A stretch of DNA of 64,000 nucleotides from a virus (taxonomy: Duplodnaviria; Heunggongvirae; Uroviricota; Caudoviricetes), in IMG/VR virus record IMGVR_UViG_3300049216_000317, positions 20,961 through 84,960 of that record; one strand, 5' to 3'. Shown here in pieces: positions 59,803 to 62,826 of this stretch. The notes under the pieces were generated by a model, which saw nothing but the letters and a program-made list of their open reading frames with translations, searched no databases and was not told the origin of the DNA. The number at the start of each line of letters is the position of its first letter. The first letter of the stretch is position 1. Made by a program: the position numbers and the translations under genes.

Positions 59803-60417
59803 ATGTCAGAATATCTTGAGATTGAAACCAAATACGACGCGACAGACATCAAGCGCGTGGACTTCAAGGTTCTGGCCGAAAATTTGGGTCAATCGCAGTT
59901 CCGTTATGCGGAGTCGCGAGATCTTTACTACGTCAAATCGGAAGAAGAGTTCCTTCGCCACCGCACGCCTTCCTCAACGGATGCAACTGGCAAATCCGAA
60001 CTGACGTTTAAGAAGAAGCATGCTGACGGGAACAACTTGGTTCGTACCGAAGTGAATCTTCGCGTGGACCACACTCCTTTGCATACGGTGAAGACGTTCT
60101 GCGAGGGTCTCGGATATAAATTTAACTTTTCGATTCTGAAATATTGCGACATCTACGTTTATGACGACGCAAACATCGCCTACTACACGGTTTTGGACGA
60201 AAACCGAAAGAGCGCAAGTTTCATCGAAGTGGAAGCGAACGAATACCTGAACGGCGTACTTTTCGCCAACGGTAGTCCCATTCGCATTTCTCAAGAGCAG
60301 GGCTGGGCGATCGTACAAAAATACGAGAAGCTATTATCCCCATTAGGGATAACAGCCCAAAAACGCATGAAATTATCGCTATTTGAGCGCTACAGAAAGG
60401 CTCCCATAAATGGATAA
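59803..60417 (+). CDS. CYTH-domain (triphosphate tunnel metalloenzyme) protein
   Basis: N-term YLEIETKY (ExExK), FLRHR (RxR), VRTEVNLR (RxExE), FIEVEANE (ExExE) in canonical CYTH order; RBS GGAG. Confidence 0.5.
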   Translation: MSEYLEIETKYDATDIKRVDFKVLAENLGQSQFRYAESRDLYYVKSEEEFLRHRTPSSTDATGKSELTFKKKHADGNNLVRTEVNLRVDHTPLHTVKTFCEGLGYKFNFSILKYCDIYVYDDANIAYYTVLDENRKSASFIEVEANEYLNGVLFANGSPIRISQEQGWAIVQKYEKLLSPLGITAQKRMKLSLFERYRKAPING

Positions 60418-60592
60418 AATTCAGATTTACGAAACAGTTCTTCTTTGCCTATGGCTCATCATCAGTGGCGTCCAGGTCGGCATATCTGCTGCCGGCGGCC
60501 ATAAAAGCGAAGTTGTCGGTAAGCTGATCGGGTTTGTCCTTGCGGCTTTGGGATCTTTGCCTATTGTCGGACGTATTTATGGGTGGTGGTAA
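60410..60592 (+). CDS. small membrane protein (two TM segments)
   Basis: 60 aa hydrophobic; overlaps CYTH gene stop. Confidence 0.35.
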   Translation: MDKIQIYETVLLCLWLIISGVQVGISAAGGHKSEVVGKLIGFVLAALGSLPIVGRIYGWW

Positions 60593-61060
60593 GTGAGTAA
60601 AGTCCTTTTATTGCTAGTTGTTTTCCATCTAAAACATTTCTTAGCAGACTATCCCTTGCAGGGTGGGTATATGCTTGGAAAGTTCAAAGGTGGTTGGGAC
60701 TGGGTCAAACCTTTGGCTGCTCACTGCGGTGTTCACGCGATTTTTACTTTCGTAATCTCACTGGGCGTTCATGCGGCTCTTGATCTTGCAATTGGCCTCG
60801 CCGCTTTGGATTTCGCTCTCCATTTCACGATGGATCGAATCAAAGCAAGCCCCAATTTGCTAGGACGTTTCAAAGCGCTTTCGGCGAAAGAATATCCGGG
60901 AGTCATGTCTTATACGACCAGCCCAGACGAAGACGCTCGCGCAAAAGCTTTTAAGCAACTGCGAGATAACAAATACTTTTGGTGGGCGCTTGGCCTCGAC
61001 CAGCTGGTTCATCATTTGACCGACATTCTGATCATTGCGTTCCTTGTCGGGGCAATATGA
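60593..61060 (+). CDS. integral membrane protein (His-rich, DUF3307-like)
   Basis: HFLADYPLQ motif, multiple TM segments; GTG start. Confidence 0.4.
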   Translation: MSKVLLLLVVFHLKHFLADYPLQGGYMLGKFKGGWDWVKPLAAHCGVHAIFTFVISLGVHAALDLAIGLAALDFALHFTMDRIKASPNLLGRFKALSAKEYPGVMSYTTSPDEDARAKAFKQLRDNKYFWWALGLDQLVHHLTDILIIAFLVGAI

Positions 61061-61437
61061 AGCTGGTCCAGTGGATAAAAAGCTTATTCCCAAAGCCCAA
61101 GCAAACTCCCAACTACCTTTTTGTTGACGGTCTTCCCTATGACATTTCGACAAAACAAGGGGCGGAGGATTTTGAACGGGCTTTAGATGAGAGCAATGAT
61201 ATTTATAAGTTAGTGGCGAGAATTCAAAAATACGTCGCCGAGGAAAATCTTGCATTAACAAATGCGGGGAGGGGCTTATGCAATACCTTCGCCCTTTTGC
61301 TCAAAGAACTGCACACATTTGCGGACAAAATCGCAGACGATGGATTGCACAAAGAACTGAAAGCTATTTTGAAGAAACATGAACAGACGCCCAAAGAAAT
61401 CCTAAAATGGGCGACCCCAAGGAAGGGAAGTAAATGA
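61057..61437 (+). CDS. hypothetical protein
   Basis: Track ORF 60979.. trimmed to ATG 61057 (ATGA overlap). Confidence 0.4.
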   Translation: MKLVQWIKSLFPKPKQTPNYLFVDGLPYDISTKQGAEDFERALDESNDIYKLVARIQKYVAEENLALTNAGRGLCNTFALLLKELHTFADKIADDGLHKELKAILKKHEQTPKEILKWATPRKGSK

Positions 61438-62450
61438 GTTCGATCGACGATGCAGCAGAATGGGTTGAGGCAGCTTCGCAGTCTTCAAAGCAATCCTCAA
61501 ATAAGTCCTCACAGAGACCGCATAGCAGTCATGACCACGAAAGTCCGTTCAAAGACGAGGATGACGAAGTTACTCCAGGGCAACTAACTCAATATTCGCT
61601 TTATGGCCGAGGTTTTAAGCCTACCACGGCAACGGTTGGAAGCCTTCCAGCAGGTGTTTACGAGATTGAAGCCGATGACCACGGGGTTTACTGCGTTCCG
61701 ATGCCACCTCCCTCGGGGCTTCTTTTGGAGTTGCCAGAAATGCGCTCGGAAGAAGTCATTAAACAGATCAATCGCTTCTGGGATTCAGAAAAAGACTACA
61801 AAGACGGAAACGAATTCGTAGTTGGCGGAGCGCAGTTCAAAGCTGGGGTTATGATCTATGGACCTCCCGGTTCTGGCAAATCATCAACGATCAAATTGGT
61901 TACCCAGAAAATGATCGAAAAAGGCGGGACGGTTTTTTACTCAAACCTCCATCCATCGCCTACAGCAGGCTTTCTTTCGTCTTTTGCGACGATTGAGCGT
62001 AACCGCAAATGTATTGTCATCCTGGAAGACATCGACTCTTTGATCGAGCAATACAGCGAATCTGGCTATCTTGAGATGCTTGATTCGGCAAAGACCATCG
62101 ACAACGTCTTGTTCATTGCGACGACCAACTACCCTGATCGTTTGGACCCTCGGATTTACAATCGTCCGGGCCGTTTCAGCCATGTAATCAAAATTGGTCT
62201 GCCCACCAAGGCTGCGCGGGAAGCCTTCTTGAAGGCGATTTTGAAGAACCACAAAGATGTTCCTTATATCGTGGATAATTCATCTGGGTTTACCGTGGAT
62301 CATTTAAGCGCCTTGATCAATTCGGTCTATCGCGAAGGCAAAGATTTGGAACACGAAATTAAACGTCTGAGAACCTTGTTCAATGCTCCCAAAACGGAAG
62401 AGCGAACGATGGGTCTTGGAATTGGAGCTAGTTTTGGATCAGATGAATAA
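61434..62450 (+). CDS. classical-clade AAA+ ATPase
   Basis: Walker A IYGPPGSGKSS, Walker B CIVILEDIDS, SRH TTNYPDRLDPRIYNRPGRFS. Confidence 0.7.
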   Translation: MSSIDDAAEWVEAASQSSKQSSNKSSQRPHSSHDHESPFKDEDDEVTPGQLTQYSLYGRGFKPTTATVGSLPAGVYEIEADDHGVYCVPMPPPSGLLLELPEMRSEEVIKQINRFWDSEKDYKDGNEFVVGGAQFKAGVMIYGPPGSGKSSTIKLVTQKMIEKGGTVFYSNLHPSPTAGFLSSFATIERNRKCIVILEDIDSLIEQYSESGYLEMLDSAKTIDNVLFIATTNYPDRLDPRIYNRPGRFSHVIKIGLPTKAAREAFLKAILKNHKDVPYIVDNSSGFTVDHLSALINSVYREGKDLEHEIKRLRTLFNAPKTEERTMGLGIGASFGSDE

Positions 62451-62826
62451 AATTGAGTTCGGTCAGTATAAGACTGACATCGGCTCGTACAACCTCGGCG
62501 TATCAAACGACATCGCTTGTGTCGTGTTCATTCGAACGGACAAAGACAAGCGGTTTTCTCTGAAGGAAGTGTTAAAAAAACACACTTTGGAGAAAAACGG
62601 AAAGCTCGAAATTACGTCACAATTTTGTTTCTACAAGGTTCAGACGACCGAGCAAATGTGGCTTCCAAAAAACAAGCTTCACGAGCGCTGGATGCGCTTA
62701 TGGGGCCAGCCTTTGACCAAGGAAATTTCGACCGAAACGTCGAAGATGGTTCAAGGCAAACAGCAAGAACTAGAGGGGCATACCTTTGAGTACGCCGTAA
62801 CAAAGCTCTACGTTCCAATTCGTTAA
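62443..62826 (+). CDS. hypothetical protein
   Basis: Track ORF 62383.. trimmed to ATG 62443. Confidence 0.4.
   Translation: MNKIEFGQYKTDIGSYNLGVSNDIACVVFIRTDKDKRFSLKEVLKKHTLEKNGKLEITSQFCFYKVQTTEQMWLPKNKLHERWMRLWGQPLTKEISTETSKMVQGKQQELEGHTFEYAVTKLYVPIR

Follow-up and report, generated by a model that had tools for sequence, protein, structure and literature searches.

A mosaic replication-module block with a predicted CYTH triphosphate hydrolase and a Bcs1/YjoB-type AAA+ ATPase in an uncultivated tailed phage

Distinguishing cyclases from hydrolases of the CYTH fold relies on three determinants, namely an N-terminal HFxxxxExExK motif, the first arginine of an xRxR motif and an ExE motif on strand beta8 (PMC8233210; Vogt et al.). 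In class IV adenylate cyclases (AC-IV), a small residue replaces the first arginine of xRxR and ExA replaces ExE (PMC8233210). SaTTM, an archaeal triphosphate-tunnel metalloenzyme (TTM), itself carried a CyaB-like cyclase annotation before it proved to be a triphosphatase. In thiamine triphosphatases (ThTPases), the arginine motif reads W/YxRxR, its aromatic side chain stacking the thiazolium ring (PMC8233210). Among AAA+ ATPases, a Walker B motif ending in "ED" is the signature of the Bcs1/YjoB branch, and the central loop of YjoB is a three-residue "FTS" (PMC9565160); a PhiGF motif on a flexible element is the means by which Clp ATPases dock on ClpP, in its H-sites (PMC12521514; PMC9035409). 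Here, we analyse a 64,000-nt stretch (hereafter the window) of the phage record IMGVR_UViG_3300049216_000317 in IMG/VR, covering positions 20,961 to 84,960, in which a block of six genes at 59803-62826 encodes a CYTH protein and an AAA+ ATPase together with four smaller proteins. With slightly better than even confidence, we read the block as a mosaic part of the phage replication module, in which a peptidase, the CYTH protein, g4 and the AAA+ ATPase form a backbone, the CYTH protein is a hydrolase and the AAA+ ATPase docks on ClpP.

The six open reading frames (ORFs) and their coordinates, as given in a preliminary description made from the letters of the window, were returned by an independent gene caller on the source contig (Logan SRR18649605, 163,827 bp), and the proteins of the block are also present on a 164,531-bp record. 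The genes are:

g1, 59803-60417, + strand: 204 aa, CYTH / triphosphate-tunnel metalloenzyme, predicted two-metal triphosphate hydrolase
g2, 60410-60592, + strand: 60 aa, two predicted transmembrane segments, lineage-specific
g3, 60593-61060, + strand: 155 aa, DUF3307 membrane protein, GTG start
g4, 61057-61437, + strand: 126 aa, conserved family without annotation
g5, 61434-62450, + strand: 338 aa, classical-clade AAA+ ATPase of the Bcs1/YjoB type
g6, 62443-62826, + strand: 127 aa, no family match, lineage-specific

The identification of g1 as a CYTH protein was borne out by profile and by fold. The PF01928 CYTH profile matches residues 6-145 with 28.2 bits against a cut-off of 23.2, and the AlphaFold2 (AF2) model, with a predicted local distance difference test (pLDDT) of 90.9, presents an antiparallel strand series and a predicted eight-stranded beta-barrel of the tunnel fold. 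The top Foldseek matches were all CYTH/TTM structures (archaeal 2dc4 and 1yem, and SaTTM, 7nsd), with class IV cyclase and ThTPase ranking below the archaeal TTMs. In a 42-sequence alignment, E6, E8, K10, D40, Y42, F50, R52, R54, K70, K72, R81, E83, E142 and E144 are invariant. Of the motif series on which the assignment had first been based, ExExK, RxR and the last ExE (E142/E144) are thus fully conserved among the 42 homologues, but the supposed RxExE reads R81-T-E83-V-N85. The g1 family also has a C-terminal helical extension in which Y174, E175 and R188 are invariant. The two outcomes that had been named beforehand as fatal to the assignment, namely a failed hidden Markov model (HMM) search or homologues that are virion proteins, were looked for, and the CYTH identity stood.

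We examined the cyclase-versus-hydrolase determinants in the window protein and 119 homologues among the matches listed (n = 120). The N-terminal ExExK (E6-I-E8-T-K10 in g1) is kept in 120/120 sequences, HF at positions -6/-5 before it occurs in 0/120, and the window protein has five residues before E6. F-x-R-x-R, i.e., with both arginines retained, is present in all 120 (F50-L-R52-H-R54 in g1), and a simple pattern search found ExE in 110 of them (E142-V-E144 in the beta8 motif of g1). Because all three cyclase determinants fail, g1 is predicted to be a triphosphate hydrolase and not a cyclase; motifs and model together point to a two-metal enzyme of the TTM/ThTPase type. Among the nucleotide-related activities proposed earlier, the determinants therefore favour the triphosphatase branch and disfavour a generator of signalling nucleotides, i.e., a class IV cyclase. 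The Joint Genome Institute (JGI) annotation "predicted adenylyl cyclase CyaB" is probably wrong, judging from these residues. F50 occupies the position of the stacking W/Y of ThTPases, with overall similarity to the ThTPase fold being low (TM-score ~0.5). Since this Phe is invariant at the stacking position, the comparison hints, by analogy, at an organic substrate (a nucleotide or similar) rather than bare inorganic triphosphate (PPPi).

Approximately 400 clusters (50% identity) match the CYTH protein at E<=1e-10 among 1.84 billion representatives, and their members are nearly all stand-alone proteins of ~190 aa. Searching the protein by tblastn against 50,697 deposited phage records gave no match at E<=0.01, and none was obtained in PHROGs. 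Among 185,579 species genomes of cellular organisms, a single match was recovered, on a phage-like contig of a metagenome-assembled genome. At the level of these sequence searches, the g1 CYTH family is confined to phage contigs. A CYTH protein in a phage is not unprecedented, since T4-like and jumbo phages have annotated CYTH ORFs, though very distant ones; a literature search found no functional study of a phage CYTH protein. Three long homologues are joined, by fusion or read-through, to homing endonucleases (LAGLIDADG in P0296, HNH-like in P0370 and P0375), and related stand-alone endonuclease ORFs adjoin CYTH or ClpP in loci L008, L033, L059 and L044. Domain fusions were considered as hints to CYTH function and dropped, the partners being homing endonucleases and hence uninformative on function. 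Homing endonucleases typically lie within or beside conserved core phage genes.

We collected ~110 related loci, searched them with iterated profiles and based synteny counts on 26 unique CYTH loci (from L001-L047). CYTH, g4 and AAA+ recur across the clade. A primase gene lies <=3 kb upstream of CYTH in 18/26 unique loci, g4 lies <=3 kb from CYTH in 14 (downstream in 13), and AAA+ lies <=3 kb downstream of CYTH in six. The slot upstream of CYTH is occupied by u1, an HExxH protein, in nine of the 26 and by ClpP in another nine (PF00574 at 1e-21 to 1e-27 in the sister lineages), with both together in none. As far as the sequences tell, this alternation looks like a non-orthologous displacement of a peptidase, and because two unrelated peptidase types alternate in one slot, a peptidase function is suggested to belong beside CYTH. 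In the window, u1 is separated from CYTH by u0:

u1, 58958-59482, + strand: 174 aa, HExxH zincin-like putative metallopeptidase
u0, 59479-59799, + strand: 106 aa, no family match

Other members of the block behave differently from this backbone. The ~110 related loci yielded no homologue of u0, g2 or g6, and g3 (DUF3307) was present in five of them without a fixed position relative to CYTH or AAA+. The closest relative (CYTH 66% and AAA+ 76% identical) has the gene order u1-u0-CYTH-57 aa-...-DUF3307-g4-AAA+-126 aa, where a 112-aa, a 57-aa and a 126-aa gene are the positional counterparts of u0, g2 and g6, and where a CTP_transf_like gene and a 99-aa gene, both unrelated to the block genes, are inserted mid-block. 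Beyond this relative, the six genes were not found together in the related loci, and blastn of 59000-63000 matched deposited phages only over short stretches (~70%), in the DUF3307 genes of T4-like phages. On the same strand, 5' of the block, lie genes for RNase H, the DNA polymerase III (PolIII) alpha subunit (DnaE), DnaB and a primase-like protein, and a C5 cytosine DNA methyltransferase gene lies directly 3' of it (62908-64000, + strand), running past the window end (476 aa on the source contig, motif DLFSGIGG), where the G+C rises to 0.51. With PolIII alpha, DnaB and primase upstream and the C5 methylase downstream, the block is therefore read as the tail end of the DNA-replication module. 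Here, we show by comparison of related sequences that 1) the six genes are not a conserved system and the block is a mosaic, 2) CYTH travels with the DnaB-primase replication module, and 3) the conserved backbone most likely consists of the slot peptidase, CYTH, g4 and a usually nearby Bcs1/YjoB-type AAA+, with u0, g2, g3 and g6 as insertions.

The earlier claim that every junction in the block is an overlap applies to four of the five: g1 and g2 overlap by 8 nt (ATGGATAA), g3/g4 and g4/g5 overlap with ATGA, and g5 and g6 overlap by 8 nt (ATGAATAA), but g2 and g3 abut, TAA being directly followed by GTG with 0 nt between. The packing continues upstream, where u1 and u0 overlap with GTGA and the u0 stop lies 3 nt 5' of the g1 start. 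The left edge of a six-gene "operon" at 59803 is arbitrary, u0 and u1 running into the block. Only two sizeable intergenic gaps were found, one of 51 nt between the primase gene and u1 and one of 81 nt after g6, and each holds a candidate signal:

58908-58936, + strand: sigma-70-like promoter candidate, TTGACA-17 nt-TACAAT, 11/12 consensus match
62862-62888, + strand: candidate terminator-like hairpin with T-run, in the 81-nt gap 5' of the C5 DNA methylase gene

Given the tight junctions, the presence of only two gaps and the promoter- and terminator-like sites within them, we read u1, u0 and g1-g6 as an eight-gene unit at 58958-62826, of which the six genes are probably the distal part and the 58908 promoter probably the start. 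This putative single operon is read from the sequence: the junctions from u1 to g6 overlap, abut or are 3 nt apart, and the promoter and terminator sites are at consensus level. The 58908 site is the top sigma-70-like match in 54000-64000; since promoter-like sites across the region are not more common than expected from shuffles, it is a candidate only. The same applies to the 62862 hairpin, because its stem is weak (7 pairs, 3 G-C). A 14-pair inverted repeat, AAGCTATTATCCCCATTAGGGATAACAGCCC, which includes TAGGGATAACAG, lies at 60328-60358 within the 3' part of the CYTH gene, where the conserved LSPLGITAQ is encoded, and was marked as terminator-like on the minus strand. Searches of the window for Rfam families and tRNAs found neither.

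Among the smaller genes, u1 has H61, E62 and H65 invariant in 10 homologues. It gave only sub-threshold matches to Peptidase_M78, M10, M3 and Wss1 in a PDB profile search and in Pfam scans of members, and is putatively a zincin-like HExxH protein with no closer assignment. The prediction of a 60-aa protein with two transmembrane segments holds for g2, with hydrophobic segments at residues 6-30 and 34-57, and profile scans of the Pfam, PHROGs, NCBIfam and PADLOC type gave it no family match. The His-rich membrane protein g3 (8 His) is a DUF3307 protein (PF11750, 28.2 bits against a cut-off of 23; phrog_2470 at 1e-27), and its DNA has ~70%-identical counterparts in T4-like phages (Aeromonas, Citrobacter), in genes annotated as "membrane protein" or hypothetical; g3 is an accessory gene, sporadic in unrelated phages. 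As previously stated for g4 and g6, no family match was found for either. The conserved core of g4 spans ~80 aa (DIYK..AR.KN....LT..G..LCN.F...LK..YDFAD), and an iterated HMM recovered 27 homologues, directly after AAA+ in five loci. A 12-sequence g4 profile had no match in PDB or PHROGs and none was found in Pfam, a Pfam scan of long, N-terminally extended homologues was also empty, and a word-indexed protein search returned the self-match only. No family match was found for g6 or u0 in profile searches.

The most conserved protein of the block is g5 (60-76% identity across the clade), and its first description as a classical AAA+ ATPase is upheld by PF00004 (AAA) at 2.7e-15 and, by sequence, Cdc48/p97 D2 at 6e-26. 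GPPGSGKS, IVILED, ATTN and RPGR, corresponding to Walker A, Walker B, sensor 1 and the arginine fingers, are invariant or nearly so in 36 homologues. Foldseek ranks 1-5 were taken by YjoB and Bcs1, the best being YjoB 7w42 (1e-14), and the Walker B motif ends in an invariant E198-D199 ("ED", not "DE"). By sequence and model, g5 belongs to the Bcs1/YjoB branch of the classical AAA proteins. In the predicted layout, an N-terminal helix is followed by a disordered acidic linker, a small beta domain (53-90) and the AAA core. In the model, beta2 spans 166-170 and a helix begins at 174, leaving only N171-L-H173 between, and the family consensus at the pore-1 site is x-[HN]-P, with no aromatic-hydrophobic threading loop. 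Because the pore-1 loop is ~3 residues long, as in YjoB, the ring would have a chamber rather than a threading pore.

Beyond the AAA core, g5 ends in a tail (residues 321-338) with pLDDT <50 that is predicted to be disordered. The features relevant to this tail and to a possible partner are:

62409-62426, + strand: candidate ClpP-docking motif, codons for M326-G-L-G-I-G331 in the g5 C-terminal tail
36521-37381, + strand: ClpP-like peptidase a, 286 aa, PF00574 at 6.6e-17
40766-41407, + strand: ClpP-like peptidase b, 213 aa, PF00574 at 3.3e-22

An [LIMVF]-G-[FLIMV] tripeptide occurs in the tail of 119/120 close homologues, versus ~11/120 shuffled tails, and sits ~10 residues past the last helix in a variable, charged tail. 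Homologues from other phage types, 30-41% identical, have MGF, VGF, IGF, FGF or LGF in their tails; a homologue in a 595-kb phage has LGF, with a C-terminus ending in ...EEKMLGFAKPYE. Annotated YjoB-like AAA+ proteins from phage phiXF1 and from Bromius, a Lactobacillus phage of the Herelleviridae, have no such tail; they were considered as comparators and rejected for their different architectures. A clamp-binding or single-stranded DNA-binding protein (SSB)-tail-like reading of the tail was set aside, as it has no Q of QL[SD]LF and the motif is not extreme C-terminal. GroEL, considered as an alternative heptameric docking partner, lies near AAA+ in one locus only and was rejected as a general partner. 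By analogy with the PhiGF motif, we infer that the g5 tail docks on ClpP.

Gene neighbourhoods are consistent with such an association. Six unique sister loci have the order primase-ClpP-CYTH-AAA+, followed in five by g4. In 10-kb neighbourhoods on either side, a same-strand ClpP gene was found for 16/39 tail-bearing versus 1/18 tail-less unique AAA+ proteins (Fisher p=0.005, a value that ignores relatedness, the association coming from ~2-3 independent lineages, which counts against leaning on it). Of the two ClpPs in the window, ClpP a retains catalytic Ser and His in an alignment with solved ClpPs, with Glu at the Asp position, and ClpP b, aligned with the human and H. pylori enzymes, has all three of Ser, His and Asp; a pattern scan for relatives of ClpP b confirmed none. 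The two ClpP genes flank an SbcC-like gene (37664-39775) and lie outside the structural module. In L064, from an unrelated lineage, ClpP lies among primase and type II topoisomerase genes upstream of AAA+, and not among head genes. ClpP in L064 is followed on its 3' side by genes for a DnaG-like primase, GyrB-like, MazG-like and GyrA/ParC-like proteins and then the tail-bearing AAA+, and an Acb1 anti-CBASS gene (PF23474, 1.6e-31) lies two genes upstream of ClpP, an arrangement noted at L064 983-3097 (+ strand). Also near AAA+, ~1.5 kb upstream of it, a ~235-aa protein with calcineurin-like phosphoesterase motifs (DLHFGH...GNHD...HGHLH) was observed in nine loci of two lineages (loci labelled L049, L064-L070, L075, L089 and L099); it has no homologue among the window ORFs at E<=1e-3.

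Taken at the level of sequence and fold, the CYTH protein of the mosaic block would cleave the terminal phosphate of a triphosphate-bearing compound. The AAA+ protein might form a chambered ring without a threading pore, whose C-terminal tails would dock in the hydrophobic H-sites of a ClpP ring, either the phage's or the host's. The resulting complex could serve as a phage-specified protease or as a ClpP regulator during replication, and synteny suggests a shared process for CYTH, g4, the peptidase and the ATPase.

Several observations weigh against this reading. In the window, the ClpP genes lie ~20 kb from AAA+ and the tripeptide is MGL/GIG, not xGF, and 23/39 tail-bearing loci have no ClpP <=10 kb, many of these contigs being short. 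The docking idea combines a three-residue motif with gene neighbourhood, and in known Clp ATPases, by comparison, the motif is on an internal loop, not on a C-terminal tail, and the pore-1 loops are aromatic, a feature that g5 lacks. A functional link between CYTH and AAA+ is weak, because the two lie far apart in some related genomes of 165-176 kb (~50 kb in 3300027911_000001 and ~120 kb in 3300048813_000140). For CYTH, archaeal 1yem has Leu at the Phe position, and the Phe is a resemblance to ThTPases only. Finally, the promoter and terminator of the eight-gene unit are consensus matches only, and that consensus may not be the one used by the host.

The alternative that survives best, which we regard as possible but doubtful, is that g5 is a stand-alone, substrate-specific chaperone or remodeller (e.g., of replisome or virion proteins), with the tripeptide serving another partner or ring assembly. 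The closest structures to g5 are Bcs1 and YjoB, the latter a chaperone that has no partner protease, and this fits, as do a pore-1 loop too short for threading and the lack of ClpP <=10 kb in most tail-bearing loci, the distance being 20 kb in the window. A stand-alone chaperone leaves the tail harder to explain, as the tripeptide matches the PhiGF motif and is kept, even among very distant phages, in a disordered tail that otherwise varies. Nor would it account for the enrichment of nearby same-strand ClpP for tail-bearing proteins or for the position of ClpP two genes upstream of AAA+ (ClpP-CYTH-AAA+) in the six unique sister loci, and GroEL, the other heptamer considered as a partner, was near AAA+ in a single locus.

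A stronger version of the docking idea, to which we assign a somewhat lower probability than to the chaperone, is that a widespread, undescribed family of phage AAA+ proteins, of the Bcs1/YjoB-like chamber type without a threading pore-1 loop and with PhiGF-type C-terminal tails, is a dedicated partner of ClpP, be it encoded by the phage or hijacked from the host. In this clade, CYTH and g4 would be accessories of the protease, given that the slot beside CYTH goes to a peptidase, either ClpP or a zincin. Members of the family come from contigs of ~11 kb up to the 595-kb megaphage. If true, this would amount to a ClpX-independent, phage-specified protease, or a ClpP gate-opener or blocker, in the replication module.

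For the CYTH protein itself, an unlikely reading is that it acts on nucleic-acid ends or on the nucleotide pool, either as a 5'-triphosphatase of primase products or RNA or as a triphosphatase of nucleoside or deoxynucleoside triphosphates that sanitises or biases the precursor pool, the peptidase/AAA+ neighbourhood being incidental. The proximity of the primase gene in 18/26 unique loci would fit such a role, and the phage also carries genes for a deoxynucleoside monophosphate (dNMP) kinase, the C5 methylase, RtcB and a ligase. An invariant aromatic residue at the substrate-stacking position would suit a nucleobase, and TTMs such as SaTTM (7nsd/7ns9) hydrolyse ATP as well as PPPi (PMC8233210). 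However, RNA triphosphatases of the Cet1 type make up a CYTH subfamily of their own, a larger one, and viral capping enzymes are only remotely similar in fold, and the mutually exclusive occupation of the peptidase slot would be left unexplained.

The preliminary description had seen in the six genes the grammar of a nucleotide-signalling defence or anti-defence system. In such a system, CYTH would make or destroy a signalling nucleotide, the two membrane proteins would be effector or sensor and the AAA+ ATPase the motor. We consider this improbable. Tight packing with overlapping junctions, a gene order kept in the closest relative and other counter-defence-like genes in the same phage (mCpol, a NAMPT/phosphoribosyltransferase pair and Macro) are what such a system would lead one to expect, and the AAA+ protein is weakly similar to the IetA and TRIP13 models. 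These matches are generic and partial, however, and PADLOC returned nothing for the other five proteins (CYTH, g2, g3, g4 and g6). The composition of the block points the same way: g2 and g6 are without homologues and g3 is unlinked to CYTH or AAA+ in the ~110 loci, CYTH and AAA+ can be tens of kb apart (~50 and ~120 kb), and two unrelated genes sit mid-block even in the closest relative. Strict co-expression of a six-gene system is thus not borne out. CYTH is instead tied to the DnaB-primase module and is, like core genes, a target or neighbour of homing endonucleases, and it does not have the cyclase determinants. The weakest reading, that CYTH is a class IV adenylate (nucleotidyl) cyclase whose cAMP reprogrammes the host, draws on the JGI name, on TIGR00318 (cyaB) as the best NCBIfam match and on YpAC-IV (a CyaB enzyme) among the fold matches, and we regard it as highly implausible given that TIGR00318 scores only 33.3 bits, far under its equivalog cut-off of 57.95, that the HF motif is missing with only five residues preceding E6, that both xRxR arginines and both ExE glutamates are kept, the opposite of all AC-IV enzymes (PMC8233210), and that the nearest folds are archaeal TTMs, including SaTTM, a former "cyclase".

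The block belongs to a genome of ~164 kb from an uncultivated, tailed phage. Its portal protein shares 46% identity with the portal of Myxococcus phage Mx1, with other cultured phages far more distant, so that by portal sequence Mx1 is the closest cultured relative, and a distant one. Elsewhere in the window, an mCpol gene runs off the window start (1-1037, - strand; N-terminal 345 of 470 aa), with a precomputed Pfam match to PF18182 (minimal CRISPR polymerase). It is unusual for a phage to encode mCpol, and the gene may have to do with immunity based on cyclic nucleotides or with countering it. A run of genes at 12166-17685 (+ strand) comprises RtcB (12166-13353), a Pribosyltran-like gene (13767-14576), NAMPT/NAPRTase (14623-16098), a Macro domain (16095-16556) and an ATP-dependent DNA ligase (16546-17685), a set that suggests NAD+ reconstitution together with RNA/DNA repair. 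At 32427-32849 there is a CTP_transf_like (NMNAT-like) gene, and a GroEL-like chaperonin (Cpn60_TCP1) is encoded at 25977-27746 (- strand), with no GroES-like gene noticed nearby.

These results have implications for both proteins. The "adenylyl cyclase CyaB" label, carried by hundreds of metagenomic phage proteins with hydrolase determinants, is corrected here, and CYTH emerges as a gene that a large clade of uncultivated ~165-kb phages conserves in its replication module, which points to a reaction on nucleotides or triphosphates that is not in the textbook account of how phages replicate. If the AAA+ tail does dock on ClpP, it would represent a new Clp protease architecture and a new phage route to bring or capture a protease, with a bearing on ClpP-targeting antibiotics, considering that acyldepsipeptide (ADEP)-like activation uses the same H-sites. 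If it does not, the AAA+ family would be the phage version of the YjoB/Bcs1 chaperones, which are themselves poorly understood.

Compared with described systems, g1 is most similar to the archaeal TTMs SaTTM (Saci_0718), PH1012 (2dc4) and Pfu-838710 (1yem), which are likewise stand-alone CYTH barrels of ~170-200 aa (Foldseek E 7e-10 to 2e-7, target-normalised TM-score 0.76-0.87). They share ExExK, DxY, xRxR and ExE with g1, as well as a CyaB-like mislabel by automatic annotation. In contrast, identity to them is only 20-23%, the invariant Phe of g1 is replaced by Ala in SaTTM and Leu in 1yem (and by Trp in ThTPase), and neither the C-terminal helical extension nor the phage-only distribution of g1 is a feature of the archaeal enzymes. 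CyaB (YpAC-IV; TIGR00318) has the CYTH fold (query-normalised TM-score ~0.54-0.57) and ExExK in common with g1, whereas g1 is without HFxxxxExExK and keeps the first Arg and the second Glu. The CYTH ORFs of Aeh1, RB49, Vibrio phage nt-1, Ralstonia phage RP12 and Aeromonas phage 65.2 resemble g1 in being stand-alone and in large phages, but they are only 12-18% identical to it and were missed both by tblastn of the 50,697 records and by PHROGs.

Like Bcs1 and B. subtilis YjoB, g5 has a Walker B of the form hhhhED, a three-residue loop (NLH versus FTS) and an N-terminal domain followed by a single AAA domain. Its N-terminal domain is much smaller, however, a beta domain of ~40 residues after the disordered acidic linker. 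Unlike the YjoB-like AAA+ proteins of phiXF1 and the Lactobacillus phage, g5 has a conserved hydrophobic-Gly-hydrophobic tail, in a phage-encoded family that is 60-76% conserved. With ClpX, ClpA and ClpC it shares a PhiG[FL] tripeptide on a flexible element after charged residues, and its gene lies in genomes, and often in clusters, together with a ClpP gene. It differs from them in belonging to the classical rather than the HCLR clade, in carrying the motif on a C-terminal tail, and in having no aromatic pore-1 loop and no zinc-binding or Clp N-domain; its ClpP binding, established for the Clp ATPases, is putative. Among these systems, therefore, g1 most closely resembles a stand-alone archaeal TTM, and g5 pairs a Bcs1/YjoB-type core with a tail motif reminiscent of the Clp ATPases.

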